A stretch of DNA of 62,412 nt, counting the filler, from Stramenopiles sp. TOSAG23-6 (taxonomy: Eukaryota), in the NCBI GenBank assembly GCA_900128565.1. It is 18 parts of 18 records of this genome, joined end to end, with 100 filler letters (N's around TTAATTAATTAA, not from the genome) between each part and the next. Parts side by side here need not be neighbours in the genome. Positions count along the whole stretch, not along the records: positions 1 to 3,384 come from LT637524.1; 17 more parts are not named here. One strand, written 5' to 3'. The position numbers and the translations under genes were made by a program. Positions 1-45,095 of the stretch are shown one piece after another. The first letter of the stretch is position 1. Every line of letters begins with the position of its first letter. The notes under the pieces were generated by a model. That model had not been told where the DNA came from. It made no database searches and was given only the letters and a program-made list of their open reading frames with translations.

Positions 1-78
1 TTTTTTATTTTTTTTTTCCGTACGAAATTTTGTACCTAACGATTTTTTTTTTTTTTGAATTATTTTTCCAAAATACAT

Positions 79-3384: not shown

Positions 3385-3484
3385 NNNNNNNNNNNNNNNN
3401 NNNNNNNNNNNNNNNNNNNNNNNNNNNNTTAATTAATTAANNNNNNNNNNNNNNNNNNNNNNNNNNNNNNNNNNNNNNNNNNNN
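3385..3484. other. Artificial contig spacer N44-TTAATTAATTAA-N44 (first of 17)
   Basis: Identical 100-nt spacers, with stops in all six frames, start at 3385, 6867, 10349, 13830, 17311, 20787, 24262, 27735, 31208, 34680, 38152, 41624, 45096, 48562, 52028, 55493 and 58953. Contig lengths never increase (3384 down to 3360 nt). Confidence 0.98.
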
Positions 3485-6817: not shown

Positions 6818-7040
6818 ATGTATGATGAAAAAATATTTCAAAAAAAAAAACCTAAATTTGTTAGGTNNNNNNNNNNNNNNNNNNNNNNNNNNNNNNNNNN
6901 NNNNNNNNNNTTAATTAATTAANNNNNNNNNNNNNNNNNNNNNNNNNNNNNNNNNNNNNNNNNNNNTTAATTTTTTTTTTCGTACGAAATTTTGTACCTA
7001 AAAATTTTTTTTTTTTTTGAATTATTTTTCCAAAATAAAT

Positions 7041-8720
7041 ATACCTTGTCTTGGTCAATTAGTTGTTAAAGCTTGTCAACGATACAACCGTAGAAATGGT
7101 AGCTTTCCAGCAACAATTGTCCTTTATCGTCCATCGAATGGTGCAGGACAACAAGAGAGAACGTTGCTCGACGACTTGAAAGTTATTAACATGGCATTTA
7201 AGGATATGGGTGTTTGTTTTATTTCAAATTTTTTCAAATTTTTTTTCAAATTTTTTTTCAAATTTTTTTTCAAATTTTTTNNNNNNNNNNNNNNNNNNNN
7301 NNNNNNNNNNNNNNNNNNNNNNNNNNNNNNNNNNNNNNNNNNNNNNNNAAATTTTTTCAAATTTTTTTTCAAATTTTTTTTCAAATTTTTTTTCAAATTT
7401 TTTTCAAATTTTTTTTTTCGTACATTTTTTCGTAGCTAACTTTTATATATATTTATACATAAATATAATCTACTGTACATGTCCCTGAAGTTCAATTCGA
7501 TGAACATGGTGGAATTAATGCACAATTGAGTACGTGTTAATAATTTAAATGTATTCAAATTTTTTAATAATTTTTTTATTAATTTTTTTTCCATATTTTG
7601 AACTCAAAAAAAAAAAAAAAAATTCAAATATTTTCTTATAAATACATGCAGCGCTCCTCGTCTTGCTCTTATTGAATATTGTACTAATCCAAAGGAACGT
7701 TTTGGAGAACAACGATTGAAGTCGGATGATAAGGTGTATAATGTCCCTGCTGGAACAGTCATTTGTGATCCTGAATTTCAACGTAAAGGTCATGGTTCAT
7801 CTTTTTTTACAGTTTCACATGTACGTTTTTTTTTTTGAGTTCAAAATATGGAAAAAAAATNNNNNNNNNNNNNNNNNNNNNNNNNNNNNNNNNNNNNNNN
7901 NNNNNNNNNNNNNNNNNNNNNNNNNNNNNNNNNNNNNNNNNNNNNNNNNNNNNTTTTTTCATACGAAATTTCGTACCTAACCAAATACATTTTTTTTTTA
8001 AATATTTTTATACAACAAAGGATTCAACATTTGCAGCAAAACCTGTCGCTTTTGATTTAGTGACAGAAAATGTAAAACACGATGACGTCACTTTTTCATT
8101 ATTTTCAAAATTGAAAGATACGCCAAAAGTGGATGAGGATGGTGAACCTGTCGGAATGCATTTCTTTCCATTTGGATCTGGATCATCAAATGATGAATGT
8201 ATGTTTTTTTTTTTTTTTTTTGACGAATAAATTGTCTTATCTTTACTTCAATTGGTCTGGCGCCGTTCGCGTCCCAGCACCATGTACGATAACCCTAACC
8301 CTAATATATACCCCTACAACCCTAACCCTAACGCTATTCCTACTACTATATATATATATATATATATATTTTTTTTATAGTAAATTTTGTACCTAAACTA
8401 AAAAGATTTTTTTTTTTGAAATATTTTTTAAATTTTATGTAAATTGGCACAAAAAGCAGCAGAAGCAATTACAGCTGTGTATGGAAGTACAAACACCGAC
8501 GAAATTCGAATTGCAGAAGCCATTGATCGCGCTGAACATGTTTGTTCCCAATATGAATTTCTGATTTTTTTTTTTTAACTTTTTTAAATTTTTTCTTAAT
8601 TTTTTAATTTTTTTTTTCGAAATATTTTTACAATTAAATTTTTTTATACTAAACGAAAAAAATCGAAAAAAAAAAATGAAATATTTTCACAAAAGATAGA
8701 CACATATGTTTTACTTGTAA
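7041..8720 (+). CDS. Argonaute, Piwi-clade, C-terminal PIWI domain (5'-partial, multi-exon)
   Basis: Exons 7041-7211, 7481-7529, 7648-7820, 8021-8198, about 8220-8283, 8439-8539 and 8700-8720 give PxTIVLYR, NVPAGTVI, FFTVSH, LTNKLSYLYFNWSGAVRVPAPCKLA and terminal MFYL-stop, all PIWI hallmarks. One junction (8199-8220) looks collapsed in the assembly. Confidence 0.85.
7224..7410 (+). repeat. Tandem ~12-nt repeat (CAAATTTTTTTT) inside a Piwi intron
   Basis: Repeated caaattttttt(t) units on both sides of an N gap. Confidence 0.8.
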
Positions 8721-9161
8721 ATAAGCAATAAAAATACTATTGAAACAATGTAAAACCCCCTAAAAATCAATCAATGTACTACTGATTGTTTGCTCATAAA
8801 AAAAAATTGTTTTCAGTTTTTGTTTAATCGATAATAAAAAAAAAAAAAACACGAAACACAAAAAAAGGAATTTCAAAATTTTATTTTTGCGCTTTTTTTG
8901 AAATTTTGTTTTGTTTTCTTGTGTCTAAAAAATGTGTTTTGTGATTTCGTGTATACAAAATAAACAATAATAACAATAATAACAATGATAACAATAATAA
9001 CAAATATTTTTTTTTATTTTTGTTGCAATACATTTGAAAATATATTGTCACATTTCACGCACTACAAAAGATTTCGTGTCCAAGTTTGTTAGTACTATTT
9101 TGTACTTTTTATTTGGAAAAATTGTTTTCCGTGTTTTTGTACACAAGAAACCCTAACCCTA

Positions 9162-9571
9162 TCAACAACAGCCACAGCAACGCTTCGCAATTTTTGTTTC
9201 AGTAGAGCTGTCATGCCAAGTATTGTGAAAAAATATTTCAAAAAAAAAAAACTTAAAATCGTTAGGTACAAAATTATCTACGAAAAAAAAAAAAAAAAAA
9301 TCATTCAAAAAAAAACGTACAGAAAATTCCACAACAACCCATTTGTTCTGATACACTCAGCTGAATACTATTAATATTGATACTTCGGTCACAAACATGA
9401 ATTGTTGTAAAATACGTGAGAAAGTCGCTATAACGCATCCAAAAGCGACCATCATTGGAACCACCACGTTTATATCCTAACTGTCTCCTTATCTTAGGAT
9501 GCTTCTGTTTTAGTGAGGAAACAAAAATTCAAAAAAAAATCGTTAGGTACAAAATTAACTATGAAAAATTT

Positions 9572-10501: not shown

Positions 10502-11664
10502 ACACAAAAATCAGATCACGAAAAAAGTCATGAATGTTCTCCTGTCTTTCTCCAATTTCTTGATTGTACGTGGCAATTGATGCGTCAATACCCAAATTGC
10601 TTTCAGTTTAACTCCGACTTACTTGTATTTCTAGGTCATCAGTTGTATACTTGCTCTTTTGGTACATTTTTAGGGAATTGTGAGCGACAAGTGTGTTTTA
10701 TTTTTTTTCAATTTCGATTTTTTTTCGTACGAGATTTTGTACCTAACAAATTTTACAAAAAAAATATTTTTTCACAATACAACGTCGTGATATGAAAATT
10801 GAATCGAAAACACCATGCTTGTGGAAGTATGTTACTGGGCCTCAAAAAAGAGATTCATTTTTAAGTCCATACTATCAATGTAAAAGTAAAATTTCTGACA
10901 ACTGTGATAATTCAAATGATGTAAAGAGTTTTAGTGGCGTTTCTAGTTCACCTACTGGATCTACTGTATTGCTACCATATATTTCAACTGTAGTTCGAAA
11001 TTATTCCGTCTGGAGTGATTACTTTTATCGTTGGTGTTCTGTTCCTTCCTATTCATCTCAGATTCCGCCAAGGTCTCGACCTGAAGGTACGTTGACTGAG
11101 TTTGTTAGTGGAGAAAAGAAAATGGAGGTGGGAGTGAAGTGTGCATATGCTTCTGCAGCGGCGGTTATCGTTGGTAGCTCAGTTAATGATTTAAGTGAGC
11201 GTGAAAGATTTGTTGAATCTGCATTGACCATCGCACAAGACAAAATTAAAGAACTTGAAGCTGAATTAATAAGAATAAAATCTCTTGACAAGGTTGTGAA
11301 GGATGCAGAAACAGATAAAATACCAAGTGAAAATTCTTTATTAAACGACACTGGAAATATATCTGTGAATCTCTCTGTAGGGGATTTAGATTTTGAGTCA
11401 GATTTTGACAAGGATCCCAGACCAGATCTCGGACCAAATCTTGCGGATTTAGGCATTTCGGAAAATATTGATGATCATTGTAATAATTCTCAATCAAATT
11501 TCAACGACATGATTAATGAAGTTGACGCTCTTTTGGTACAAGATAATGCTCCTGAAAATCCAGAAACCAAAAATATTTTGGATACAGAAAAAAATCAAAA
11601 AAATCAAAATTCTAATGAAGGTATGGAAAATTCTGAAAATGTATTGACGGAAGTATATGAATGA
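10502..11664 (+). CDS. Myotubularin-related phosphatase, C-terminal part (5'-partial; exons 10502-10690, 10783-11664)
   Basis: SPVFLQFLDCTWQLMRQYPNCFQFN and FGTFLGNCERQR are myotubularin motifs, followed by WSDYFYRW and a coiled coil. Confidence 0.88.
10691..10782 (+). other. Non-canonical intron GT-AA (myotubularin)
   Basis: CAA|GTGTGT...TACCTAAC...AATATTTTTTCACAATACAA|CGT restores NCERQ|R in frame. Confidence 0.8.
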
Positions 11665-15171: not shown

Positions 15172-16483
15172 TTACGATTTTCGTCTTTTCTGAGGTTTTT
15201 TATTTGCANNNNNNNNNNNNNNNNNNNNNNNNNNNNNNNNNNNNNNNNNNNNNNNNNNNNNNNNNNNNNTTGCCTTTCTCTTTCTTCTCTTATTCGTTGT
15301 ACAAACCTGACCTTTTCTAAGCATTCCCAAACAAGGACTACATGTGGTACAAAATCCACATGGATGAGCGCATCGAGTTTTTTTTTCACTATGAGCATCA
15401 CAAGATTGACCTCGGAATTGCTTCGGAAATATTGCATCCATTATCTCGAAATTAAACGCCACAGAATACCCACTATCAGGATCTATGCCAATAGAAGTAT
15501 TGTGGGAAATATTTAATTAAAAAAAATCGTTAGGACAAAATTTCATACAAAAACAATGTAGGTAAACAACTCAATTCTGAAAACATACAAGGACATGCGA
15601 ATTGGTGAAACATCTCCGCCCACCTATTTTGTTGAACGTAGGTAATACAGTCACCCCACAATTGTACTAAATGGAGCACTTCGTGCTTCTCAATCGCAGT
15701 TAGACTTGGAAAGGATTTCTCTTTTTTCTTCTTTATATTTTTCTTCTTTATATTTTTCTCCTTTACGTCATCTTTTTGCTTGTTCTTCAACTTTTTCCTC
15801 ACACATTTCAAAAGCCTACAGAAACTCCATTTTGTATTTTTACGAATACACGTAATCTGTCCTTCAGGAACTTTATCGTTAATCCATTTTCCAGCCTGAA
15901 TGGATTTCTTCAAGAAAGTAACTTCACGATTCATCGTGTCACAGGCAACGACTGCATTCTTTTTTTCACATTCTGAATTTACTTTGTTTTCATCCGTATC
16001 TGAATTTCTAAATCCAACTTGAGAATTCGAGTATGCATGTGACTATGTATCTAATTGGCGAATAAAACTTAATTGGTCCATGAAACTTAGATTATAATTC
16101 ATCGTAAAGTTTGTTTCATACCAATCTGGAAATACTGAAGCTACTAGTGAAACATCATTTAGATTTACCTCGGGGTAAGGATAAAAGTTGTGCACTTCTT
16201 CTGAAATAGAAAAATAATACTTTAAATCATCCGCATTGTCTAGCTTTATCCCAGAAAATTGATAAAAATCATCATCAACTAATTCTGGCTTTTGGGAATC
16301 ATCGGTTGTACTAAAGTTAGTCTTCTTAAAGTGATGCTTCATTCGCTCATCACGGAGAACAGAATAACAATACTTAGTTGGACTTTCCAAAGCACGGGTC
16401 TCAAGTACACTGTAACAAGAAGAAGCCCCCATTTCGTTGCAGTCTGTAATATCTTTTCGGGGTGACATAATAATGTAATCCAA
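15172..16483 (-). pseudogene. Cys-rich hypothetical gene with one in-frame TAG and a GT-TT intron
   Basis: ORFs 16483-16043 and 15934-15530 share a frame and are separated only by TAG at 16045-16043. Intron 15588-15495 (CTT|GTATGT...AATACTT|CT) joins them in phase to ORF 15462-15172 (CAHPCGFCTTCSPC). Confidence 0.5.
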
Positions 16484-20326: not shown

Positions 20327-20945
20327 CGTCTCATTGATGGTTGTCAATCATCATTTTTTTTTTATAGTGGAGTCCATGAACTATCCGGAGCGATATCTGA
20401 ATTGGCATTGCTTGCAGATGAACCGTAATCAACTTCCTCATCCGATATCTCACTCAGAGATAAATCAATCCTTGTACCATCTTCCAAGCAGCGGCTTAAT
20501 TGTTGTTGAGGCCAATCAATTGGAGTCTTGACCAGAACGCGGGGAGGATCTACAATAGAAGGAGATACTGTTCTTGAACTGACACCTTCTTCATATAACA
20601 GCCAATTATTCGTTTTTTATAAGTGTGTGTATGATAGTCAAATAATTACACAAAATTAAAATAATATGGCTTACTATTATTCAATATACAATAAAACACG
20701 CCCCAACTTACTCTACTTGGCTGGTTTCCCCTCCGTGTTATAAACAGGCAGAACGTACCCGCAGTCCCCCCTAGTTCCAGCTTTCGNNNNNNNNNNNNNN
20801 NNNNNNNNNNNNNNNNNNNNNNNNNNNNNNTTAATTAATTAANNNNNNNNNNNNNNNNNNNNNNNNNNNNNNNNNNNNNNNNNNNNAAATTTTGTACCTA
20901 ACAAATTTTTTTAGATTTTTTTTGAAATATTTTTCCAAAATCCAT

Positions 20946-23391
20946 TGGTACAAACTCAAATGATCTTCATTCAGGTGGGAGCAGCATCTGTGGAGGTGGT
21001 AGAAATAGTATAGGACAAATTATTAGTCCTTCACAAGCACAAGCGTATTTTGTTTTGCCCCATTCAGAAAGAACTGCATGTATGTTTTATTTTTTTTTTA
21101 TTTTTAAATTTTAAATTTGAAATTGAATTTTTTTTTTTTTTTTTTTTTTGAAACTAAAAAAAAAAATTTTGAAATATTTTTCCAAAATACATCAGAAAGT
21201 ATGAGTCGATCGTTTGCAGTGTCTATCCCTCATAGTTCAATAACAAGCACAACACGACGAAGTTTATATGGGTCATCATTTACTAATGTACATTTTGATC
21301 AAGAATTTATTATTATTATTTTTACAAAAAAAAAAATTCATATGAAATTTCGTACCTAACAAAAAAATTGAAAAATTGAAAAATATTTTTTTTCACAAAA
21401 CATGAATCCTCATTAAATTTTCCATCAATAATGTCTCAATCATTCGGTCATGAATTTTCTCTATCTCGGTATAATTCAACAATGTCACAAAATATTTCTA
21501 ATTCATTTAACTCTAAATCAAATATTGAATCAAGATTTGAATCAAGATTTAATTCTGTTAATTCTAAATCAAATATTGAATCAAGATTTGAATCAAGATT
21601 TGAATCAAGATTTAATTCTGCTGAATGCTCTAATCGATCAAGATCAAGTCATCACAGTGCTGCAGCTATCAAAAATGAAGAAAAAGTACAAAGAAGTAAA
21701 AAAAAAAAATTACTACCATTGTACGTTGTACAAAGAAAAATAATTTCAAACAATTTTTTTTTTTTTTTTTTACATTTTTTTTTTCGTACGAAATGTTATA
21801 CCTAAGAAATTTCAGTTTTTTTTTTCATAATATTTTCACAAAATTACATACGATCAGGAGCTCAAGAACGAATTGATTGGATTAATGCAGTTGAAGCAGC
21901 ATCAAATAGAAGAGAAACAGAAAAAAAATTATCATTTACAAAATGTGATACATTTGAAAACGAAAACCCTAACTTTACAAAATATATTGACAAAGAAGAA
22001 GAACAAAATTCTTCTACCAAGTATGATACCATTGATTCATTGAACCCTAACCCTAACCCTAACCCTAGTAAAAACAATCAAAACAATCAAAACAATCCGA
22101 CACATGACATAACAGAACAACTTTTACAATTAGCTAAATTAGATCCTTTAGAAATTTTGACACGAAATGAAAAAAAATTAATTTGGTCCAATCGAATTTC
22201 GTATAGAGGTTTGATTTGGACAACACCATCTTTATTTCATAAATTGATACGTTCAATTGATTGGATGAATGAAAATATGTACGTTTATTTTTTCTTCATT
22301 ATTGTAAAAAAATTTTTTTGTAAAAAAATTTTTTTTTTTTGTAATTTTTTTTTTTTTTTAAATTCGTAGTACATTTTCATACCTAACAAAATTGTACATT
22401 TTATTTTGGAATATTGTCTCACAAAACATTGTTAATGAAATGATGAAAGAGGTACCACCTATAGAGTACTGGTTACCCGGTTCTGGCTCTGTATCTGCAT
22501 TAGTACAATCTATTGATAAGCAATATGAGACATCAAATACAACACATTCAAACCCTAACCCTAGATACGATATAAACCCTAACCCTAGATACGATATTTT
22601 ACCAAAATATTTTCCTGTCGCTCCAATAGAAATAATAACACTTTTAGGACCTACTGTTACCCACAAAAGATTTCGTGCATATGCATTACAATGTGTCCAT
22701 CGGGTATGTTTTTTTTTATTTGGGTATGTTTTTTTTTATTTACCCTAACCCTAATAATTTAATTTTTTTTTTTTGAATTATGAAAATTTTATTAATAATT
22801 TTTTTTTATTGAAATAAATTTTTCACAATACATTTATTATGCACAACTGAAGATTTCGTGCTTTATTTACCTCAATTAGTCCAATGCTTAAAAAGTGAAA
22901 TTCCATTTGACATTAAAATTGAAACAACTAACCCTAACCCTAATGAGACGAAAAAACATGATAAAACTTTACATACAAATATTTGTAGTAAAAGTAAAAA
23001 AGTGTTTGTTCAAGATATTAAACACAAAGATGTACATACATGCAATATTGAATGTGATACAGGATTTGATTCATCGACTTCGTATGATACTGTAGTTGAA
23101 GAAGATACTACGTATTTTTTATCATCGTAACAAAAAACAACTTTTTTTTTTTTTTTTTTTTTTTTTTTGTAAATTTTGTACCTAACAAAAAAAATAAAAA
23201 CAAATTTTTGAAATATTTTTTAACAATGCATTAGACCGTTACGTTGGAGACTTTGGTCACCATTGGCTAATTATCTTTGGAAGTATGCAATAGCTAATGA
23301 AACATCCGTTGGGCTTCCTTTATATTGGGCTCTTCAAGTAGAAGAACATGTTTGTGATCATTGAAAAATTTGTACCTAACAAAAACAATTG

Positions 23392-23459
<68 letters not shown>

Positions 23460-24152
23460 ATATATTTGTACCTAACAAAACAATGTTATACTTTTGAATT
23501 ATTATCCAAAGTATATGGTGCTCAACATCCTCTTTTACATTCATTACTTACACGAATGCGGGAAACAATTTTACTAATTCAAACCCAAGAAAAAGTTTGT
23601 ACGTTTTGTGTATTTTTTTTTCAATTTTTTTTTCATACGAAATTTTGTACCTAACGATTTTTTACAAAAAAAAAAAAAAACATATTTTTTTACAATATAT
23701 GGGGCGAATCAGGTTTTTTTGCTACAATTAATCGGAAAATACAATTTGGACAAACCTGTTCTGATGTTTTGTCTTCATGTATTGATGTACATTTAGCTAT
23801 TGCTGTGGGTAAGGTCAAAAAATTAGGTAATAGTGGTCGGAAATGGCGAAATAGATATGTAGTCCTGGTACGTTTTTCAAAAAATGTGATTTTTTTTTTT
23901 TTTTAAATTTTTTTTCGTACCAAAATTTGTACCTAACAAAAAAAATTTTTAAAAAATATATTTTTTCACAATACATTTGAAAGGTCGACTTCAATATTAT
24001 ATATCAGAAACAGCAACAATGCTACAAAGAGACATGCCTTTTGATACTTTTGTCCATTATGAAAATGCTTTACAATTCTTAAATGTAGTACAAATTAATG
24101 GATCAAATTTTTATCCATTCAAAATTATTTTTAAAACAAATGATGATGACAT
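20946..24152 (+). CDS. Phosphoinositide 3-/4-kinase family protein with PH-like domains (internal fragment, 10 exons)
   Basis: Spliced frame gives ERIDWINAVE (PH C-helix), the PIK helical domain (EKKLIWSNR, RSIDW, FRAYALQCV, LYLPQLVQCLKSE, LYWALQVE), a PH motif GKVKKLG..KWRNRYVVL and the kinase N-lobe IIFKTNDDD. Confidence 0.85.
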
Positions 24153-24227
24153 GTATGTTTTTTTTTTTACAAAAAAATCGAATTTTTTTTTTTTTTTTTT
24201 TGTAAAAAAATTTTTTACCTAAAAAAA

Positions 24228-24261
<34 letters not shown>

Positions 24262-31141: not shown

Positions 31142-31314
31142 GTATGTTTTATTTTTTTTTTTTTACAAAAAAATCGATTTTTTTTTCATACGAAATTTTG
31201 TACCTAANNNNNNNNNNNNNNNNNNNNNNNNNNNNNNNNNNNNNNNNNNNNTTAATTAATTAANNNNNNNNNNNNNNNNNNNNNNNNNNNNNNNNNNNNN
31301 NNNNNNNCAATATT

Positions 31315-31347
<33 letters not shown>

Positions 31348-31352
31348 GGGGA

Positions 31353-31407
<55 letters not shown>

Positions 31408-31422
31408 TTTTGCAATACCTAC

Positions 31423-34400
31423 ACATTCCCTTAATAGCTCACACGCATCTGCAGATAAACAAGAAGGAGGTATCGGAGGCGCGACTTTTTCCGATGCAAT
31501 ATGAAACATTGCAGTGATTGGATTTTCAAATTTCTTTTCATGCCATGGATGTATTTTGGAAAAATATTTCAAATTATTTTTTGTTAGGTACAAACTTTTT
31601 ATAAAAAAAACATTCATACAAAAAAAAAATAAAAAAACATACATTCTTTCCCGTTGCCATTTCAATTACAGTGCATGTATTGTGAAAAAAAAAATGTATG
31701 AAAAAAAAACGTTAGGTATGAAATATATTACAAAAACAAAAATTGCAAAAAAAAATTGGAAAGAAAAAAACCTACATGTAATGTAGAAAAANTATTTTTT
31801 TTTNTAAAATTCGTTAGGTACAAAATTTCGTACGAAAAGCAAATTTAAAATTGAAAAAAAAAGAAACCTACATCCAACACTCCAAATATCAGCTTTAGGC
31901 CAATCAACATGCACGTCAATTTCATGATTAAGATGTTTAAATACTTTCATTCCAGCAGTTGGAGATCTTGGACCTGGATTTATTTGCTGTTTTAAAGAGG
32001 CCGAACCCATCCGAATGACCTCTGGAGCCATCCATAATGGTGTCCCTAAAGGAAATTCAATTTGACCTGGTAAACCAAAACTTTCATTTTTACCAATTTC
32101 GAATTTATTTTTGAAACCAAAATTTTCATTTTGATTTTTTGATGTATTTTTTACATGACTGATAGAATGATCATTTTTGTAATGTATTGAAGAATTTTTA
32201 CGGAAACTTGAATATTTCCTTCGTTTTGGTGTCAATTCTTTTAAAGATTTACTTGCCTGTAGTATACGAAGAATATTAATTTTTTTTTGTTAGGTATGAA
32301 ATTTTTACACGAAAAAAATAAAAAAAAATAAATTTAAATTTAAATTTAAATTTAAAAAAAAAAATGGAATACAAAACATACACCAAAATCAGCAAGCTTT
32401 ATGATACCTCTATTACTAATTAATATATTAGCACCTTTTACATCTCGATGTGCTATACCATGATTATGTAAATATTGCAAACCTTTAATGATTTGTCTTG
32501 TGTAGCATTTTAATGCCTTTTCTGGCAAACCTGTAGGAAATTTTTTCAGTAAATCATGAACAGAGCCTCCTGGTAAATATTCCATAAAAATACGCAACGC
32601 CCATCCACAGGTAAGAGAACCATGAGTCATTGGGCTTGGCGTCCGAGTCCAATCTAAACCCTTTCGTGGAATTGATGTNTTGNGAANATATATATATANA
32701 NTTTNTNTTGGTAAATAAAACTCGTTTGGTACATGATGTACTACAAAAATAAACAATACGTTGAAAAAATATATATATAGGAGAATACACCTACATGGAC
32801 TTCTAATACGTTGTAATTGTGACGGCATTACTCCTCCTGGTAAAGGTTGTCGCTCTGTAGCAAAATAGTGCACAATATTCTCATTGGATAAAGCACGCAT
32901 TAATGAAATTTCATCTTGAAGAGTTACCAATTCGCCAGGTCTTGCTAAAGCGGCATCTAGGGATGTGACTTCTATCGGAGGTAACTCAACTTCTTTCATA
33001 GCCATAACTTGTCCATTATCGAGATTTGTTACAACAAAGACTCTACCATATTGACCTTGACCAATACATTTGCCGCGTCTCCAACGGAAAGGTGCTGGTT
33101 GAACCCATGACTTTTCATGTGGACTCAAATGCCGTTTCGGTGGTGTGATGACGCGAAAATTATTATCTTCTTTCAGAATTTCTGTACTCATTAAACCTTC
33201 TGTTGAATCAATATCTTCACTATCATCAGACACGACAACTTTACGAAAAAAATTTGAAATTAATTTACGTTTCATTGTCTTTCTTCTCCATCGAGGTGTT
33301 GTCCATAAAACTGATAATTCTTTAAGATCATCTTGAGTAGATAAATCTATTTGTTCAACAACTGCACTTTGTACTAAAAATTTATCTGGTTTAGCATTTA
33401 TGTCTTCTCTGTCTAGTAATTGTCTAACTTCTTGTTTTCGTATAATAAATTGAACATCTGTCCATTTACCTGGTTTTATAAGACCCATGTATTTTGGAAA
33501 AATATTTTGAAAAAAAAAAATTGAAAAATTTGTTAGGTACAAAATTTCGTACGAAAAAAAAATTTGAATTTCAAATTTAAAAAAAAAAAAANATACATTG
33601 CTGGTCTAACTAAATATCGATCTGGTTGTGTTGTTTTTATCTTAAATGCCACGGATTCTAAGGGTAGTGAATTTTCTAATAAAAGCTGACCAAGTGCACT
33701 TTGTGCTGTGTCTAAAGCAAAATCTATTTCATCTCTTGGTGTGCATCGTAATCTGTACTTTGGGAAAATATTTTAAAAAAAAAAGTGTTTGTTTAAGCAA
33801 AATNTTTTTTTTTTTTAATATATATATATAGCAAAACAATCAAAAATAAATGATGAAATAAAAACATACGCTTTTCTATGACGCATATCGATGACAGCAC
33901 TATTTGTTTTCTTTGAACGAATTCCATGGCGATTATTTTCACGTAATTTTTTATTACTTTGTGTACATATTTTNTGAAAAAATATTTTTTTTTTTTTTTN
34001 TAAAATTTGTTATTTTTGTTAGGTACGAAATTTCGTATGAAAAAAAAATTGAAAAAAATTGGAAAAAATTGATAAAAAATTGAAAAAAAAAACATACCAC
34101 TTTGTTTTTGAATAGTCATTTGTAAAGAAGCAACAGAACTGTTACCAGGAAATGAAGGTAATGACTTACCAGGTGAAAAAATATTTGTGTTTTTCGTGTA
34201 TGGAGATCCAATAGGCGTACCATAAGGAGTTAAAGGTTGAATTTTAAATTTATTTGGCATTGGACAATTTTGTGAAAAATATTTCATTTTTTTTAGGGTT
34301 AGTGGTTTAGTGGGTTAGGGTTAGGATTTGGAAAAAAAAAATGAAATTCATTAGGGTTAGGGTTAACACATACGATCCTCTTGGCGTACTATAAGGACTA

Positions 34401-34679
34401 ATACTATCATTCATATTTTCAATTTGAATGTGACGAATTTTCTTACGACTTTTCATATCTAATAAAGACACATTTTCTAGTACTTTTTTGTTAGGGTTAG
34501 GGCTAGGGTTAGGGTCTGTTGTATTCGGTGTAGGATTTGTTGTATTTTTTATTCTTGAAAGAAGTTTTTCAATTCCTTTACGAAACTTTTTTTTTGTTTT
34601 TGTATTTTTAAGATTCATTACATTATCAACATTATCAACATTATCAACATTATCAACATTATCAACATTTTTATCATCA
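31423..34679 (-). CDS. MSP(VAP)-domain STE11/MEKK-like Ser/Thr kinase (partial, multi-exon), copy 1
   Basis: MSP signature VAFKIKTTQPDRYLVRPAMGLIKPG; kinase motifs GQGQYGRV, MAMKEV, HRDVKGAN, DFGAS, GTPLWMAPE and DIWSVGCTVIEMATG after splicing. Confidence 0.9.
31675..31871 (-). other. Two abutting GT-AT intron units (31871-31776, 31775-31675) with no exon between them
   Basis: GGA T|GTAGGT..TACCTAAC..TTACAT|GTAGGT..TACCTAAC..AATACAT|GC ACT restores DIWSVGCTVIEM. Confidence 0.82.
33487..33596 (-). other. Non-canonical intron GT-AT within the MSP domain
   Basis: GCA AT|GTATGT...AAAATACAT|G GGT restores YLVRPAMGLI (compare VAP YCVRPNSGII). Confidence 0.85.
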
Positions 34680-34786
34680 NNNNNNNNNNNNNNNNNNNNN
34701 NNNNNNNNNNNNNNNNNNNNNNNTTAATTAATTAANNNNNNNNNNNNNNNNNNNNNNNNNNNNNNNNNNNNNNNNNNNNCAATATT

Positions 34787-34819
<33 letters not shown>

Positions 34820-34824
34820 GGGGA

Positions 34825-34879
<55 letters not shown>

Positions 34880-34894
34880 TTTTGCAATACCTAC

Positions 34895-37800
34895 ACATTC
34901 CCTTAATAGCTCACACGCATCTGCAGATAAACAAGAAGGAGGTATCGGAGGCGCGACTTTTTCCGATGCAATATGAAACATTGCAGTGATTGGATTTTCA
35001 AATTTCTTTTCATGCCATGGATGTATTTTGGAAAAATATTTCAAATTATTTTTTGTTAGGTACAAACTTTTTATAAAAAAAACATTCATACAAAAAAAAA
35101 ATAAAAAAACATACATTCTTTCCCGTTGCCATTTCAATTACAGTGCATGTATTGTGAAAAAAAAAATGTATGAAAAAAAAACGTTAGGTATGAAATATAT
35201 TACAAAAACAAAAATTGCAAAAAAAAATTGGAAAGAAAAAAACCTACATGTAATGTAGAAAAAATATTTTTTTTTNTAAAATTCGTTAGGTACAAAATTT
35301 CGTACGAAAAGCAAATTTAAAATTGAAAAAAAAAGAAACCTACATCCAACACTCCAAATATCAGCTTTAGGCCAATCAACATGCACGTCAATTTCATGAT
35401 TAAGATGTTTAAATACTTTCATTCCAGCAGTTGGAGATCTTGGACCTGGATTTATTTGCTGTTTTAAAGAGGCCGAACCCATCCGAATGACCTCTGGAGC
35501 CATCCATAATGGTGTCCCTAAAGGAAATTCAATTTGACCTGGTAAACCAAAACTTTCATTTTTACCAATTTCGAATTTATTTTTGAAACCAAAATTTTCA
35601 TTTTGATTTTTTGATGTATTTTTTACATGACTGATAGAATGATCATTTTTGTAATGTATTGAAGAATTTTTACGGAAACTTGAATATTTCCTTCGTTTTG
35701 GTGTCAATTCTTTTAAAGATTTACTTGCCTGTAGTATACGAAGAATATTAATTTTTTTTTGTTAGGTATGAAATTTTTACACGAAAAAAATAAAAAAAAA
35801 TAAATTTAAATTTAAATTTAAATTTAAAAAAAAAAATGGAATACAAAACATACACCAAAATCAGCAAGCTTTATGATACCTCTATTACTAATTAATATAT
35901 TAGCACCTTTTACATCTCGATGTGCTATACCATGATTATGTAAATATTGCAAACCTTTAATGATTTGTCTTGTGTAGCATTTTAATGCCTTTTCTGGCAA
36001 ACCTGTAGGAAATTTTTTCAGTAAATCATGAACAGAGCCTCCTGGTAAATATTCCATAAAAATACGCAACGCCCATCCACAGGTAAGAGAACCATGAGTC
36101 ATTGGGCTTGGCGTCCGAGTCCAATCTAAACCCTTTCGTGGAATTGATGTNTTGNGAANATATATATATANANTTTNTNTTGGTAAATAAAACTCGTTTG
36201 GTACATGATGTACTACAAAAATAAACAATACGTTGAAAAAATATATATATAGGAGAATACACCTACATGGACTTCTAATACGTTGTAATTGTGACGGCAT
36301 TACTCCTCCTGGTAAAGGTTGTCGCTCTGTAGCAAAATAGTGCACAATATTCTCATTGGATAAAGCACGCATTAATGAAATTTCATCTTGAAGAGTTACC
36401 AATTCGCCAGGTCTTGCTAAAGCGGCATCTAGGGATGTGACTTCTATCGGAGGTAACTCAACTTCTTTCATAGCCATAACTTGTCCATTATCGAGATTTG
36501 TTACAACAAAGACTCTACCATATTGACCTTGACCAATACATTTGCCGCGTCTCCAACGGAAAGGTGCTGGTTGAACCCATGACTTTTCATGTGGACTCAA
36601 ATGCCGTTTCGGTGGTGTGATGACGCGAAAATTATTATCTTCTTTCAGAATTTCTGTACTCATTAAACCTTCTGTTGAATCAATATCTTCACTATCATCA
36701 GACACGACAACTTTACGAAAAAAATTTGAAATTAATTTACGTTTCATTGTCTTTCTTCTCCATCGAGGTGTTGTCCATAAAACTGATAATTCTTTAAGAT
36801 CATCTTGAGTAGATAAATCTATTTGTTCAACAACTGCACTTTGTACTAAAAATTTATCTGGTTTAGCATTTATGTCTTCTCTGTCTAGTAATTGTCTAAC
36901 TTCTTGTTTTCGTATAATAAATTGAACATCTGTCCATTTACCTGGTTTTATAAGACCCATGTATTTTGGAAAAATATTTTGAAAAAAAAAAATTGAAAAA
37001 TTTGTTAGGTACAAAATTTCGTACGAAAAAAAAATTTGAATTTCAAATTTAAAAAAAAAAAAACATACATTGCTGGTCTAACTAAATATCGATCTGGTTG
37101 TGTTGTTTTTATCTTAAATGCCACGGATTCTAAGGGTAGTGAATTTTCTAATAAAAGCTGACCAAGTGCACTTTGTGCTGTGTCTAAAGCAAAATCTATT
37201 TCATCTCTTGGTGTGCATCGTAATCTGTACTTTGGGAAAATATTTTAAAAAAAAAAGTGTTTGTTTAAGCAAAATGTTTTTTTTTTTTAATATATATATA
37301 TAGCAAAACAATCAAAAATAAATGATGAAATAAAAACATACGCTTTTCTATGACGCATATCGATGACAGCACTATTTGTTTTCTTTGAACGAATTCCATG
37401 GCGATTATTTTCACGTAATTTTTTATTACTTTGTGTACATATTTTGTGAAAAAATATTTTTTTTTTTTTTTNTAAAATTTGTTATTTTTGTTAGGTACGA
37501 AATTTCGTATGAAAAAAAAATTGAAAAAAATTGGAAAAAATTGATAAAAAATTGAAAAAAAAAACATACCACTTTGTTTTTGAATAGTCATTTGTAAAGA
37601 AGCAACAGAACTGTTACCAGGAAATGAAGGTAATGACTTACCAGGTGAAAAAATATTTGTGTTTTTCGTGTATGGAGATCCAATAGGCGTACCATAAGGA
37701 GTTAAAGGTTGAATTTTAAATTTATTTGGCATTGGACAATTTTGTGAAAAATATTTCATTTTTTTTAGGGTTAGTGGTTTAGTGGGTTAGGGTTAGGATT

Positions 37801-38151
37801 TGGAAAAAAAAAATGAAATTCATTAGGGTTAGGGTTAACACATACGATCCTCTTGGCGTACTATAAGGACTAATACTATCATTCATATTTTCAATTTGAA
37901 TGTGACGAATTTTCTTACGACTTTTCATATCTAATAAAGACACATTTTCTAGTACTTTTTTGTTAGGGTTAGGGCTAGGGTTAGGGTCTGTTGTATTCGG
38001 TGTAGGATTTGTTGTATTTTTTATTCTTGAAAGAAGTTTTTCAATTCCTTTACGAAACTTTTTTTTTGTTTTTGTATTTTTAAGATTCATTACATTATCA
38101 ACATTATCAACATTATCAACATTATCAACATTATCAACATTTTTATCATCA
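34895..38151 (-). CDS. MSP-domain MEKK-like kinase, redundant contig copy 2
   Basis: Same sequence as copy 1 at offset 3472, apart from resolved Ns. Confidence 0.85.
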
Positions 38152-38258
38152 NNNNNNNNNNNNNNNNNNNNNNNNNNNNNNNNNNNNNNNNNNNNTTAAT
38201 TAATTAANNNNNNNNNNNNNNNNNNNNNNNNNNNNNNNNNNNNNNNNNNNNCAATATT

Positions 38259-38291
<33 letters not shown>

Positions 38292-38296
38292 GGGGA

Positions 38297-38351
<55 letters not shown>

Positions 38352-38366
38352 TTTTGCAATACCTAC

Positions 38367-41300
38367 ACATTCCCTTAATAGCTCACACGCATCTGCAGAT
38401 AAACAAGAAGGAGGTATCGGAGGCGCGACTTTTTCCGATGCAATATGAAACATTGCAGTGATTGGATTTTCAAATTTCTTTTCATGCCATGGATGTATTT
38501 TGGAAAAATATTTCAAATTATTTTTTGTTAGGTACAAACTTTTTATAAAAAAAACATTCATACAAAAAAAAAATAAAAAAACATACATTCTTTCCCGTTG
38601 CCATTTCAATTACAGTGCATGTATTGTGAAAAAAAAAATGTATGAAAAAAAAACGTTAGGTATGAAATATATTACAAAAACAAAAATTGCAAAAAAAAAT
38701 TGGAAAGAAAAAAACCTACATGTAATGTAGAAAAANTATTTTTTTTTNTAAAATTCGTTAGGTACAAAATTTCGTACGAAAAGCAAATTTAAAATTGAAA
38801 AAAAAAGAAACCTACATCCAACACTCCAAATATCAGCTTTAGGCCAATCAACATGCACGTCAATTTCATGATTAAGATGTTTAAATACTTTCATTCCAGC
38901 AGTTGGAGATCTTGGACCTGGATTTATTTGCTGTTTTAAAGAGGCCGAACCCATCCGAATGACCTCTGGAGCCATCCATAATGGTGTCCCTAAAGGAAAT
39001 TCAATTTGACCTGGTAAACCAAAACTTTCATTTTTACCAATTTCGAATTTATTTTTGAAACCAAAATTTTCATTTTGATTTTTTGATGTATTTTTTACAT
39101 GACTGATAGAATGATCATTTTTGTAATGTATTGAAGAATTTTTACGGAAACTTGAATATTTCCTTCGTTTTGGTGTCAATTCTTTTAAAGATTTACTTGC
39201 CTGTAGTATACGAAGAATATTAATTTTTTTTTGTTAGGTATGAAATTTTTACACGAAAAAAATAAAAAAAAATAAATTTAAATTTAAATTTAAATTTAAA
39301 AAAAAAAATGGAATACAAAACATACACCAAAATCAGCAAGCTTTATGATACCTCTATTACTAATTAATATATTAGCACCTTTTACATCTCGATGTGCTAT
39401 ACCATGATTATGTAAATATTGCAAACCTTTAATGATTTGTCTTGTGTAGCATTTTAATGCCTTTTCTGGCAAACCTGTAGGAAATTTTTTCAGTAAATCA
39501 TGAACAGAGCCTCCTGGTAAATATTCCATAAAAATACGCAACGCCCATCCACAGGTAAGAGAACCATGAGTCATTGGGCTTGGCGTCCGAGTCCAATCTA
39601 AACCCTTTCGTGGAATTGATGTNTTGNGAANATATATATATANANTTTNTNTTGGTAAATAAAACTCGTTTGGTACATGATGTACTACAAAAATAAACAA
39701 TACGTTGAAAAAATATATATATAGGAGAATACACCTACATGGACTTCTAATACGTTGTAATTGTGACGGCATTACTCCTCCTGGTAAAGGTTGTCGCTCT
39801 GTAGCAAAATAGTGCACAATATTCTCATTGGATAAAGCACGCATTAATGAAATTTCATCTTGAAGAGTTACCAATTCGCCAGGTCTTGCTAAAGCGGCAT
39901 CTAGGGATGTGACTTCTATCGGAGGTAACTCAACTTCTTTCATAGCCATAACTTGTCCATTATCGAGATTTGTTACAACAAAGACTCTACCATATTGACC
40001 TTGACCAATACATTTGCCGCGTCTCCAACGGAAAGGTGCTGGTTGAACCCATGACTTTTCATGTGGACTCAAATGCCGTTTCGGTGGTGTGATGACGCGA
40101 AAATTATTATCTTCTTTCAGAATTTCTGTACTCATTAAACCTTCTGTTGAATCAATATCTTCACTATCATCAGACACGACAACTTTACGAAAAAAATTTG
40201 AAATTAATTTACGTTTCATTGTCTTTCTTCTCCATCGAGGTGTTGTCCATAAAACTGATAATTCTTTAAGATCATCTTGAGTAGATAAATCTATTTGTTC
40301 AACAACTGCACTTTGTACTAAAAATTTATCTGGTTTAGCATTTATGTCTTCTCTGTCTAGTAATTGTCTAACTTCTTGTTTTCGTATAATAAATTGAACA
40401 TCTGTCCATTTACCTGGTTTTATAAGACCCATGTATTTTGGAAAAATATTTTGAAAAAAAAAAATTGAAAAATTTGTTAGGTACAAAATTTCGTACGAAA
40501 AAAAAATTTGAATTTCAAATTTAAAAAAAAAAAAANATACATTGCTGGTCTAACTAAATATCGATCTGGTTGTGTTGTTTTTATCTTAAATGCCACGGAT
40601 TCTAAGGGTAGTGAATTTTCTAATAAAAGCTGACCAAGTGCACTTTGTGCTGTGTCTAAAGCAAAATCTATTTCATCTCTTGGTGTGCATCGTAATCTGT
40701 ACTTTGGGAAAATATTTTAAAAAAAAAAGTGTTTGTTTAAGCAAAATNTTTTTTTTTTTTAATATATATATATAGCAAAACAATCAAAAATAAATGATGA
40801 AATAAAAACATACGCTTTTCTATGACGCATATCGATGACAGCACTATTTGTTTTCTTTGAACGAATTCCATGGCGATTATTTTCACGTAATTTTTTATTA
40901 CTTTGTGTACATATTTTNTGAAAAAATATTTTTTTTTTTTTTTNTAAAATTTGTTATTTTTGTTAGGTACGAAATTTCGTATGAAAAAAAAATTGAAAAA
41001 AATTGGAAAAAATTGATAAAAAATTGAAAAAAAAAACATACCACTTTGTTTTTGAATAGTCATTTGTAAAGAAGCAACAGAACTGTTACCAGGAAATGAA
41101 GGTAATGACTTACCAGGTGAAAAAATATTTGTGTTTTTCGTGTATGGAGATCCAATAGGCGTACCATAAGGAGTTAAAGGTTGAATTTTAAATTTATTTG
41201 GCATTGGACAATTTTGTGAAAAATATTTCATTTTTTTTAGGGTTAGTGGTTTAGTGGGTTAGGGTTAGGATTTGGAAAAAAAAAATGAAATTCATTAGGG

Positions 41301-41623
41301 TTAGGGTTAACACATACGATCCTCTTGGCGTACTATAAGGACTAATACTATCATTCATATTTTCAATTTGAATGTGACGAATTTTCTTACGACTTTTCAT
41401 ATCTAATAAAGACACATTTTCTAGTACTTTTTTGTTAGGGTTAGGGCTAGGGTTAGGGTCTGTTGTATTCGGTGTAGGATTTGTTGTATTTTTTATTCTT
41501 GAAAGAAGTTTTTCAATTCCTTTACGAAACTTTTTTTTTGTTTTTGTATTTTTAAGATTCATTACATTATCAACATTATCAACATTATCAACATTATCAA
41601 CATTATCAACATTTTTATCATCA
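38367..41623 (-). CDS. MSP-domain MEKK-like kinase, redundant contig copy 3
   Basis: Same sequence as copy 1 at offset 6944. Confidence 0.85.
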
Positions 41624-41730
41624 NNNNNNNNNNNNNNNNNNNNNNNNNNNNNNNNNNNNNNNNNNNNTTAATTAATTAANNNNNNNNNNNNNNNNNNNNN
41701 NNNNNNNNNNNNNNNNNNNNNNNCAATATT

Positions 41731-41763
<33 letters not shown>

Positions 41764-41768
41764 GGGGA

Positions 41769-41823
<55 letters not shown>

Positions 41824-41838
41824 TTTTGCAATACCTAC

Positions 41839-44800
41839 ACATTCCCTTAATAGCTCACACGCATCTGCAGATAAACAAGAAGGAGGTATCGGAGGCGCGA
41901 CTTTTTCCGATGCAATATGAAACATTGCAGTGATTGGATTTTCAAATTTCTTTTCATGCCATGGATGTATTTTGGAAAAATATTTCAAATTATTTTTTGT
42001 TAGGTACAAACTTTTTATAAAAAAAACATTCATACAAAAAAAAAATAAAAAAACATACATTCTTTCCCGTTGCCATTTCAATTACAGTGCATGTATTGTG
42101 AAAAAAAAAATGTATGAAAAAAAAACGTTAGGTATGAAATATATTACAAAAACAAAAATTGCAAAAAAAAATTGGAAAGAAAAAAACCTACATGTAATGT
42201 AGAAAAANTATTTTTTTTTNTAAAATTCGTTAGGTACAAAATTTCGTACGAAAAGCAAATTTAAAATTGAAAAAAAAAGAAACCTACATCCAACACTCCA
42301 AATATCAGCTTTAGGCCAATCAACATGCACGTCAATTTCATGATTAAGATGTTTAAATACTTTCATTCCAGCAGTTGGAGATCTTGGACCTGGATTTATT
42401 TGCTGTTTTAAAGAGGCCGAACCCATCCGAATGACCTCTGGAGCCATCCATAATGGTGTCCCTAAAGGAAATTCAATTTGACCTGGTAAACCAAAACTTT
42501 CATTTTTACCAATTTCGAATTTATTTTTGAAACCAAAATTTTCATTTTGATTTTTTGATGTATTTTTTACATGACTGATAGAATGATCATTTTTGTAATG
42601 TATTGAAGAATTTTTACGGAAACTTGAATATTTCCTTCGTTTTGGTGTCAATTCTTTTAAAGATTTACTTGCCTGTAGTATACGAAGAATATTAATTTTT
42701 TTTTGTTAGGTATGAAATTTTTACACGAAAAAAATAAAAAAAAATAAATTTAAATTTAAATTTAAATTTAAAAAAAAAAATGGAATACAAAACATACACC
42801 AAAATCAGCAAGCTTTATGATACCTCTATTACTAATTAATATATTAGCACCTTTTACATCTCGATGTGCTATACCATGATTATGTAAATATTGCAAACCT
42901 TTAATGATTTGTCTTGTGTAGCATTTTAATGCCTTTTCTGGCAAACCTGTAGGAAATTTTTTCAGTAAATCATGAACAGAGCCTCCTGGTAAATATTCCA
43001 TAAAAATACGCAACGCCCATCCACAGGTAAGAGAACCATGAGTCATTGGGCTTGGCGTCCGAGTCCAATCTAAACCCTTTCGTGGAATTGATGTNTTGNG
43101 AANATATATATATANANTTTNTNTTGGTAAATAAAACTCGTTTGGTACATGATGTACTACAAAAATAAACAATACGTTGAAAAAATATATATATAGGAGA
43201 ATACACCTACATGGACTTCTAATACGTTGTAATTGTGACGGCATTACTCCTCCTGGTAAAGGTTGTCGCTCTGTAGCAAAATAGTGCACAATATTCTCAT
43301 TGGATAAAGCACGCATTAATGAAATTTCATCTTGAAGAGTTACCAATTCGCCAGGTCTTGCTAAAGCGGCATCTAGGGATGTGACTTCTATCGGAGGTAA
43401 CTCAACTTCTTTCATAGCCATAACTTGTCCATTATCGAGATTTGTTACAACAAAGACTCTACCATATTGACCTTGACCAATACATTTGCCGCGTCTCCAA
43501 CGGAAAGGTGCTGGTTGAACCCATGACTTTTCATGTGGACTCAAATGCCGTTTCGGTGGTGTGATGACGCGAAAATTATTATCTTCTTTCAGAATTTCTG
43601 TACTCATTAAACCTTCTGTTGAATCAATATCTTCACTATCATCAGACACGACAACTTTACGAAAAAAATTTGAAATTAATTTACGTTTCATTGTCTTTCT
43701 TCTCCATCGAGGTGTTGTCCATAAAACTGATAATTCTTTAAGATCATCTTGAGTAGATAAATCTATTTGTTCAACAACTGCACTTTGTACTAAAAATTTA
43801 TCTGGTTTAGCATTTATGTCTTCTCTGTCTAGTAATTGTCTAACTTCTTGTTTTCGTATAATAAATTGAACATCTGTCCATTTACCTGGTTTTATAAGAC
43901 CCATGTATTTTGGAAAAATATTTTGAAAAAAAAAAATTGAAAAATTTGTTAGGTACAAAATTTCGTACGAAAAAAAAATTTGAATTTCAAATTTAAAAAA
44001 AAAAAAANATACATTGCTGGTCTAACTAAATATCGATCTGGTTGTGTTGTTTTTATCTTAAATGCCACGGATTCTAAGGGTAGTGAATTTTCTAATAAAA
44101 GCTGACCAAGTGCACTTTGTGCTGTGTCTAAAGCAAAATCTATTTCATCTCTTGGTGTGCATCGTAATCTGTACTTTGGGAAAATATTTTAAAAAAAAAA
44201 GTGTTTGTTTAAGCAAAATNTTTTTTTTTTTTAATATATATATATAGCAAAACAATCAAAAATAAATGATGAAATAAAAACATACGCTTTTCTATGACGC
44301 ATATCGATGACAGCACTATTTGTTTTCTTTGAACGAATTCCATGGCGATTATTTTCACGTAATTTTTTATTACTTTGTGTACATATTTTNTGAAAAAATA
44401 TTTTTTTTTTTTTTTNTAAAATTTGTTATTTTTGTTAGGTACGAAATTTCGTATGAAAAAAAAATTGAAAAAAATTGGAAAAAATTGATAAAAAATTGAA
44501 AAAAAAAACATACCACTTTGTTTTTGAATAGTCATTTGTAAAGAAGCAACAGAACTGTTACCAGGAAATGAAGGTAATGACTTACCAGGTGAAAAAATAT
44601 TTGTGTTTTTCGTGTATGGAGATCCAATAGGCGTACCATAAGGAGTTAAAGGTTGAATTTTAAATTTATTTGGCATTGGACAATTTTGTGAAAAATATTT
44701 CATTTTTTTTAGGGTTAGTGGTTTAGTGGGTTAGGGTTAGGATTTGGAAAAAAAAAATGAAATTCATTAGGGTTAGGGTTAACACATACGATCCTCTTGG

Positions 44801-45095
44801 CGTACTATAAGGACTAATACTATCATTCATATTTTCAATTTGAATGTGACGAATTTTCTTACGACTTTTCATATCTAATAAAGACACATTTTCTAGTACT
44901 TTTTTGTTAGGGTTAGGGCTAGGGTTAGGGTCTGTTGTATTCGGTGTAGGATTTGTTGTATTTTTTATTCTTGAAAGAAGTTTTTCAATTCCTTTACGAA
45001 ACTTTTTTTTTGTTTTTGTATTTTTAAGATTCATTACATTATCAACATTATCAACATTATCAACATTATCAACATTATCAACATTTTTATCATCA
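41839..45095 (-). CDS. MSP-domain MEKK-like kinase, redundant contig copy 4
   Basis: Same sequence as copy 1 at offset 10416. Confidence 0.85.

Follow-up and report, generated by a model that had tools for sequence, protein, structure and literature searches.

Bursts of intron gain are mainly attributed to introners. These are intron-generating DNA transposons, known for example from Micromonas, Aureococcus and dinoflagellates (PMC9860276), and, as far as the accessible part of that survey describes them, they share with the introns reported here from Stramenopiles sp. TOSAG23-6 (GCA_900128565.1) the occurrence of similar short introns in unrelated genes, inverted ends, a target duplication, and the frame-keeping removal of the element together with one duplicate. 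Described introners have duplications of 3-9 bp and GT/GC/GA-AG boundaries in the same part of the survey (PMC9860276), whereas the apparent duplication here is 2 bp, the duplicate would be the last dinucleotide of the intron, and 23 of 29 introns end in a dinucleotide other than AG. The motif strings of the family were not found in the literature searched or in the accessible supplement to PMC9860276; the sequence files of that survey lay outside the comparison and may list the family.

Other described systems share individual traits with this family. The introner elements of Amoebophrya likewise come from a marine protist, are mostly non-canonical introns, and have inverted repeats as well as short direct repeats across their boundaries (PMC7789003). 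According to the available text on these elements, however, their terminal dinucleotides are not conserved at either end, the inverted repeats measure 8-20 nt and the direct repeats 3-5 nt, and the host genes are GC-rich (PMC7789003), whereas here GTAYGT and CTAAC are kept and the 3' end alone is free. In euglenid nonconventional and intermediate introns the ends pair with a 2-nt stagger, short direct repeats are frequent and a MITE origin is suspected (PMC12501133, PMC4770533), as in the present family; the euglenid CDG/CH'G signature (N3-CDG / CH'G-N5-6), as given in the excerpts at hand, is absent here, and a canonical 5' GT and strong branch motif are present instead. The U12-type introns of Physarum combine a long rigid 5' signal with free 3' dinucleotides, including GT-AT, and a proposed origin by 2-bp (TA) duplication (10.1101/2020.10.12.336362), but in the portion of that account available to us their 5' signal is RTATCYTT and their branch motif TTTGA lies 10-12 nt from the end, whereas here G occupies position +5 and the distance from CTAAC to the end is 33-57 nt. 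Finally, in Fritillaria borealis, which has MITE-derived non-canonical introns, most introns escape GT-AG and the 3' ends are read by changed factors (PMC13326754); in the available extract they are also without the 5' GT that is kept here. On composition or 5' signals, as these partial sources report them, Amoebophrya, the cultured diplonemids (PMC12621601) and Fritillaria do not fit. At the level of detail that the sources offer, the closest systems are introners and Amoebophrya in kind, Euglena nonconventional introns in geometry, and the Physarum U12 expansion and Fritillaria in logic, and none of the systems compared is described there as having, next to a canonical 5' GT and a strong branch motif, a terminus that would be the target duplicate at the 3' side. 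We consider it likely that the introns described here are an introner-like (MITE-like) high-copy family of 90-200 nt, in which the variable end dinucleotide would be the duplicated target copy.

Layout of the introns

The window analyzed is a 62,412-nt pseudo-molecule of short contigs (3.36-3.38 kb, ordered by length and counted as about 24) rather than one locus, and its contig joints are 100-nt N/TTAATTAATTAA linkers (e.g., 3385-3484 and 6867-6966). The contigs at 31308-34679, 34780-38151, 38252-41623 and 41724-45095 are near-identical, as is the pair at 45196-48561 and 48662-52027, and all intron counts take a single copy per duplicated contig. A 3472-nt "tandem array" was discarded as an effect of assembly or concatenation. 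The assembly is fragmentary, with Ns within homopolymer runs in addition to the duplicated contigs. Over its non-N bases the window is about 65% A+T, and it encodes eukaryotic genes in the standard code with matches to Ank/EF-hand/WW, protein kinase, SNAPC1, Sel1/U-box, DUF4116, FkbM, PIK domain, BTB with pentapeptide repeats, VPS13_C and GFO/IDH/MocA, together with calpain exons. The genes that host the introns are unrelated to each other (kinase, calpain, DUF4116, PIK-domain, VPS13-like, EF-hand, and an ORF with a ZGRF1-like domain that shares a contig with the SNAPC1 gene), and the many similar short introns among them show that a family exists. Tandem repeats also occur in the coding sequence: the SNAPC1-like gene holds an in-frame 27-nt tandem repeat of 7.2 copies (48006-48200), and the U-box gene a Sel1 repeat array with 108/324-nt periods (53232-54076).

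Bases 19-78 (+) form the 3' two-thirds of one intron copy, the 5' part of which lies beyond the window start. This part begins with the palindrome GTACGAAATTTTGTAC (20-35), a T variant that could form a 6-bp stem with a 4-nt loop, and continues with the branch-site-like CTAAC (36-40), a T-rich spacer (41-58), the box variant ATTATTTTT (59-67), which has one mismatch to the box AATATTTTT, and the terminal bases CCAAAATACAT (68-78). The 3' terminal block as a whole, ATTATTTTTCCAAAATACAT (59-78), agrees at 19 of 20 positions with the consensus AATATTTTTYCAMAATACAT and places the predicted acceptor at 78|79, after a terminal AT; the open frame at 79-522 matches VPS13_C. The consensus of branch sites is yUnAy/UACUAAC. 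By its match to this consensus CTAAC at 36-40 is a putative branch site, whose putative branch A (position 39) is separated from the intron end by 39 nt.

This layout, which the initial annotation had described, is real and recurs through the window. With at most one mismatch, TACGAAATTTYGTAC has 44 matches in the window against 0.08 expected, a count over both strands that comes down to 17 unique sites once duplicates and strand doubling are removed, and the box AATATTTTT has 69 matches against 10.1 expected. The C variant is indeed a perfect palindrome, as at 7962-7976. Our intron set comprises 29 complete, non-duplicate introns fixed by coordinates, 92-200 nt in length; partial introns at contig ends and gaps are extra to this set. 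All 29 start with GT (GTATGT in 11, GTACGT in 10, GTAGGT in two, and close variants in six), and position +5 is G in the GTATGT and GTACGT introns and in most of the other variants. The predicted ends are AT in 18, AG in six, TT in two, and AA, GT and GG in one each, so that 23 of 29 depart from the AG rule of U2-type introns, with A kept at -2 in 25. Two U2-type traits are present: the 5' GT lies in a U1/U6-type consensus in all 29 introns, and CTAA of the yUnAy type occurs in 24. The earlier statement that most introns carry the palindrome followed by CTAAC was overstated: a reading of the sequence contexts finds the palindrome in 14 of 29 with at most two mismatches. The putative branch A, placed before at 35-55 nt from the acceptor, mostly lies at 33-57 nt, but there are outliers at 79 nt and, spuriously, at 5 nt.

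A copy typically reads, in order, exon (NN), GTAYGTTTT, a variable T-rich stretch, an optional (C)RTACGAAATTTYGTAC, CTAAC, a variable A/T stretch, and the end block. GTAYGTTTT is a yeast-like 5' splice signal. The end block is a rigid 20-nt unit, AATATTTTT-YCAMAATAY-NN followed by exon, also written (TTTG)AAATATTTTT-YCAMAATAY-NN. A model copy of 110 nt, AT|GTATGTTTT ... CGTACGAAATTTTGTACCTAAC ... AATATTTTTCCAAAATACAT|G, lies at 36959-37068 (-); it has the direct repeat AT/AT, and its frame is open over 149/148 nt across the junction, with at most 19 nt in the shifted registers. The copy at 10691-10782 (+) ends in AA after an exon ending in AA (150/150 nt open, shifted registers at most 17), that at 45407-45557 (-) ends in GT after an exon ending in GT and has its palindrome-to-box segment duplicated internally, and that at 15495-15588 (-) ends in TT after an exon ending in TT, by sequence and frame test. 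By the same two means, a copy in the DUF4116 gene (2583-2679, -) ends in GG after an exon ending in GT, and a canonical GT-AG intron with CATACCTAAC and a degenerate terminal block lies at DFG|ASK of the kinase (35729-35853, -). The intron at 37225-37341 (-) has a GTATGT start and the family end block without the palindrome or CTAA, and it ends in AATATTTTCCCAAAGTACAG, with AG in place of the usual AT.

Palindrome, box and end block

The palindrome had been proposed as an RNA stem that presents the branch site, with a lack of covariation named beforehand as the result that would refute it, and the covariation test found none. Across 36 unique modules the 3' arm TYGTAC is near-invariant and the 5' arm decays (position 1 is G in 16, A in 12, T in seven and N in one; C at position 4 and G at position 5 each occur in 17). 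Among 34 aligned copies 69.8% of cells pair against 69.0% in shuffles, with 142 of 500 shuffles equal or better, and the covariation score is 0.100 against 0.098 in shuffles, with a double change in one pair only. The folding of entire introns does not exceed the level of shuffles (z from -1.2 to +0.6). Selection for an RNA stem is not supported by these tests, which have limited power should the copies be young. Within CTAAC the C, the T and both A's are invariant across the 34 aligned modules, and the conserved part of the region is TTTYGTACCTAAC, that is, the branch motif with a 5' extension.

The initial annotation had also taken the box as a ruler that ends usually 11 nt before the acceptor. 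When scored with at most one mismatch, the box does end at 11 nt in 14 of 29 introns, because the 20-nt end block rarely has indels, but it ends at 12 nt in three and 13 nt in two, and in the other 10 it is absent, degenerate or distant (6 to 90 nt). Eight of these 10 introns still end at an ATAY+2-type block. The box is the 5' half of a single ungapped 20-nt terminal block and not a separable ruler. Among the five introns with a spacing of 12 or 13 nt, three (21288, 30900, 21721) have extra bases in the T-run or before TAC, and in all five the cut stays with the terminal ATAY+2 or YAG; the frame is decisive for this register at 21288, 30900 and 35853 and tied at 21721 and 7530. In the intron at 9921-9767 (-), as read from the sequence, a full-length box ends about 33 nt before AG. 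The spacing variants and this intron show the end motif to be a better predictor of the cut than the box. The 3' boundary is fixed 2 nt past the terminal TAY. A GT..AC reading of 9921-9767 (-) was dropped for the better, canonical reading GTGTATGT...ACAG.

These results bear on the explanation in which the palindrome stem presents the branch site while a factor on AATATTTTT, for example a U2AF-like dimer on its T-run, measures about 11 nt to the cut. The spacing falls within 11-13 nt in 19 of 29 introns, the T-run stands at the place of a polypyrimidine tract, and divergent U2AF paralogues read non-AG ends in Fritillaria, according to the available part of PMC13326754, all of which would be consistent with such a measurement. 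We nevertheless regard it as unlikely, given that the stem lacks covariation and would bury the UAC of the branch motif, that at spacings of 12 and 13 nt the cut follows the terminal motif, and that eight of the 10 introns without a usable box end at the ATAY+2-type block. For the introner-like family that we favor, the palindrome would be a passenger of the element, of which the 3' arm alone is kept, extending the branch motif.

Reading frames, homology and RNA contigs

Two lines of evidence, reading frames and kinase homology, support the claim of the initial annotation that the acceptor has a set position within a conserved 3' block and is in most cases non-AG. Acceptors were predicted by the best ungapped match to the 20-nt 3' consensus, and frames were not used. 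The predicted acceptor with the best GTAYGT donor was frame-compatible automatically in 16 introns and after manual frame setting at 26461, 21721, 30900, 37569, 37341, 36266, 35343, 35114 and 10104; the intron near 52368 (-) could not be fitted to its predicted end. In a stricter test each chosen junction was compared with shifts of 1 or 2 nt over 150-nt flanks, where chance gives one in three. The chosen junction was uniquely best in 20 of all 29 introns and tied in six, with a shifted register open longer in three (37341, 9320, 9921); for the 23 non-AG introns the corresponding numbers are 16, six and one; of the 17 non-AG introns in which the frame decides, 16 favor the predicted end. At 9320-9218 (-) the predicted end needs the gene to stop at ...CCGCC*, and otherwise a shifted register is open longer.

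Homology fixes two non-AG ends, both in the kinase gene. At 35147-35343 (-) there is a tandem double element, AT[GTAGG..TTAC]AT[GTAGG..ATAC]AT, consisting of two diverged copies in one kinase codon. When the whole interval is removed, the kinase reads ADIWSVGC|TVIEMATGK with a single Cys. No exon lies between the two copies, both of which fall inside the one Cys codon, and removal could be joint or sequential. The second end belongs to a GT..AT intron that separates TGKN from PW in the kinase domain (35021-35114, -), where removal gives MATGKN|PW and the spacing equals the two residues between ...MATG and PW in the intronless homologue P0019. The non-AG acceptors as a class are inferred from frames and homology of this kind.

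An artefact, in which the copies lie in pseudogenes or misassembled contigs and the real acceptors are ordinary AGs elsewhere, would find some room in the fragmentary assembly with its Ns in homopolymer runs and duplicated contigs, and in the fact that spliced RNA was not seen in the contigs of one metatranscriptome sample. We consider it extremely improbable, since the chosen junctions are open over the full exon or the 150-nt flank in 29 of 29 introns, the kinase motifs join without a gap, and use of the nearest in-frame AG at 35021-35114 would remove the conserved PW from the kinase.

The exact register of the cut can be discussed at the level of individual groups of introns. The 14 introns with a perfect 2-nt repeat can be slid by up to 2 nt, and AT..AC is also a possible reading of them. 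Cleavage before the G of GUAUGU is an established rule for spliceosomal introns. Because of this rule, we favor the register GT..NN over NN-GT..AC in the introns without a perfect repeat, among them those at 23868-23976, 22704-22833 and 2583-2679. A weak argument on register comes from the exon pair 23703-23867 / 23977-24150, which we take to look PH-domain-like (RYVVL|LKGRLQYY); searched singly, these two exons gave no match in Pfam or PDB sequences. A search for homologues of the PIK-domain exon among longer proteins gave none.

RNA data were available as two contig sets from one seawater metatranscriptome sample, the library of which may contain DNA. No intron-sized joints or spliced contigs were seen in these contigs, and this lack of joints is no evidence against splicing. 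A single RNA contig crosses an intron (record 8, 22194-22638), and in it the intron (22279-22429) is still present. Listed joints that skip about 2700 nt were rejected as splicing and are instead other module copies aligned in two pieces. On one 3.4-kb stretch, 497 and 482 contigs were placed from the two sets, and the summed depth over intron modules reaches 3786 and 8519, whereas most other bins do not exceed 7.6; one further module bin has a summed depth of 119.5. The similarity to the other copies ends at 20945 or 20941, which is the predicted intron end. Within 20887-24261 the loose ends of RNA contigs beside the module read ...AT followed by GTAGGTTTT, and ...ACAT followed by GTACG. Other copies in the seawater sample thus have the AT|GT boundary too, and further tandem elements are probably among them. 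A metagenome scan for CTAAC...end-block gave 25 loci, all of them chance matches without the module; viral contigs gave 0 matches to the intron module, prokaryote genomes gave one chance match, in a Bacteroidales MAG, and an Rfam search of the window found no snRNA and no other family.

Direct repeats, inverted ends and the origin of the family

The suggestion of a transposon link in the initial annotation has gained support from a 2-nt direct repeat and from the tandem double element. In 14 of 29 introns the final dinucleotide repeats that of the upstream exon (permutation mean 7.6, P = 0.00045), and the same holds for 13 of the 23 non-AG introns (P = 0.001). AT is common on both sides of the introns, which leaves a large share of the repeat signal to a small number of non-AT cases. 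The rare perfect repeats are AA/AA at 10691, GT/GT at 45557 and TT/TT at 15588; the remaining two rare ends each have one base equal to the exon end, and the perfect repeat is missing in 15 of 29 introns. The complementarity of the GTA and TAC ends, which had also been noted before, is real: at least three pairs form in the register +1:-3 in 21 of 29 introns. These inverted ends are short, with 3 bp firm and about six of eight consensus positions complementary, and the eight introns without 3-bp pairing keep the same register; if G-U pairs count, the flush register pairs even more positions. Covariation of the end pairing at +4 is not supported, a matching change being seen by eye in one of seven GTAC introns. 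Taken together, the direct repeat, the GTA...TAC inverted ends and the tandem element can be read as the duplication of a 2-bp target site. The ORFs scanned contained no transposase domain, and neither an empty site nor a presence/absence polymorphism was found. The evidence for the target duplication is statistical.

We propose that the element would insert with a 2-bp target duplication, most often at AT, and that excision of the RNA, beginning at G1 and running through the second target copy, would restore the frame. The end dinucleotide would be variable because it is the target copy that is removed with the element. The host splicing machinery would tolerate the non-AG ends and probably find the site through the conserved end block, by a T-run that acts like a polypyrimidine tract and/or by pairing with the intron's 5' end.

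A family that is not mobile might instead have reached long rigid splice signals by lineage-wide convergence, as with the fused branch/3' motif of Trichomonas and Giardia. Such a history would agree with the finding that the best-conserved parts of the introns are the likely splicing signals (the 5' signal, TTTGTACCTAAC and the end block) and that the spacers differ in length and sequence. It would leave the 5' arm of the palindrome, intact in many copies, without an obvious splicing role, and 2-nt repeats that include AA, GT and TT, as well as tandem and internally duplicated elements, would not be expected from it; we judge it quite improbable and continue to favor insertion of an introner-like element.

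The mode of acceptor choice is a separate question, for which a T-run used as a polypyrimidine tract, pairing of the end block with the 5' end, and a true branch within the end block are all possible. In a tentative and somewhat unlikely proposal the 3' cut would be set structurally, 2 nt past the GUA/UAC end helix, rather than read as a dinucleotide, which would combine an Euglena-like stagger with a yeast-like 5' signal and branch site. If this were true, the family would represent a living link from ordinary spliceosomal introns to the nonconventional ones of unknown excision machinery, and a 2-bp transposon footprint could become a splice site of any sequence.

The same end pairing is also what a structure-guided, non-spliceosomal excision would use, as proposed for the euglenid nonconventional introns, in which the inverted ends pair and are cut with a 2-nt stagger. 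The register +1:-3 is the one to be expected for such a cut, and N3-CDG ... CH'G-N5 in Euglena implies the same stagger, with slidable introns common there in the accessible part of PMC12501133. This is very unlikely to apply here, however, given that a GT/GTAYGT-type start is conserved in 29 of 29 introns along with the strong branch motif, both of which are missing from euglenid nonconventional introns, that folding does not exceed shuffles, and that the introns without 3-bp end pairing keep their register.

A true branch within the end block would correspond to a minor-spliceosome-like reaction, in which the A's at -9 to -6 serve as branch, the cut is set by distance, and CTAAC is a passenger or an alternative branch. 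A long 5' signal, a conserved motif near the end and free end dinucleotides that include GT-AT are U12-type traits, and the available account of Physarum describes U12 introns that have expanded, with a branch motif at -10 to -12 and a proposed transposon with TA duplication (10.1101/2020.10.12.336362). In the present introns, though, neither the U12-type 5' signal RTATCCTT nor, at 10-20 nt before the 3' end, the branch motif TCCTTAAC or a lineage variant of it was found: +5 is the G of GTAYGT, no intron has the C of RTATCC, the end block is unlike TCCTTAAC or TTTGA at the right place, and CTAAC, 33-57 nt from the end, is too conserved for a passenger. We therefore regard a minor-spliceosome-like reaction as rather unlikely.

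Under the introner-like origin that we favor, this family seems to make up most introns of the organism and to end in AT or in the target dinucleotide. If RNA confirms this, a spliceosome with classic 5' and branch signals would accept almost any 3' dinucleotide in the right block, gene finders that demand AG would mis-annotate most genes of the organism, and the family would offer a clean system for how the second splicing step finds its site, with a rigid end block and natural variants of end base and spacing. The observation in the initial annotation is largely right, and its interpretation is partly supported: it was right about the link to transposons and about a non-AG acceptor at a fixed position, and it was wrong or unproven on the RNA stem and on the ruler role of the box.

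Separately from the introns as a family, the telomere-like motif CCCTAACCCTA occurs 43 times in the window against 0.21 expected, for example at 8293-8336, 22045-22067, 22553-22587, 22743-22753, 37964-37986 (-) and 48308-48324. In the cases checked it is oriented in the sense of the local gene, and some occurrences lie just past gene ends. At 22045-22067 it stands within an open frame and encodes Pro-Asn repeats. In the calpain-like gene, if the intron at 9218-9320 (-) ends as predicted, the coding tail at 9160-9217 (-) reads ...KRCCGCC and is followed by a stop and a TTAGGG-like motif, and an alternative frame continues through the telomere-like motif; the Cys-rich tail might be lipid-modified. 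At 22704-22743 (+) the 5' end of an intron is doubled, with GTATGTTTTTTTTTATTT present twice 20 nt apart, and the first copy alone is in frame with the predicted acceptor. The occurrence of CCCTAACCCTA at 22743 is intronic and provides a CCTAAC.
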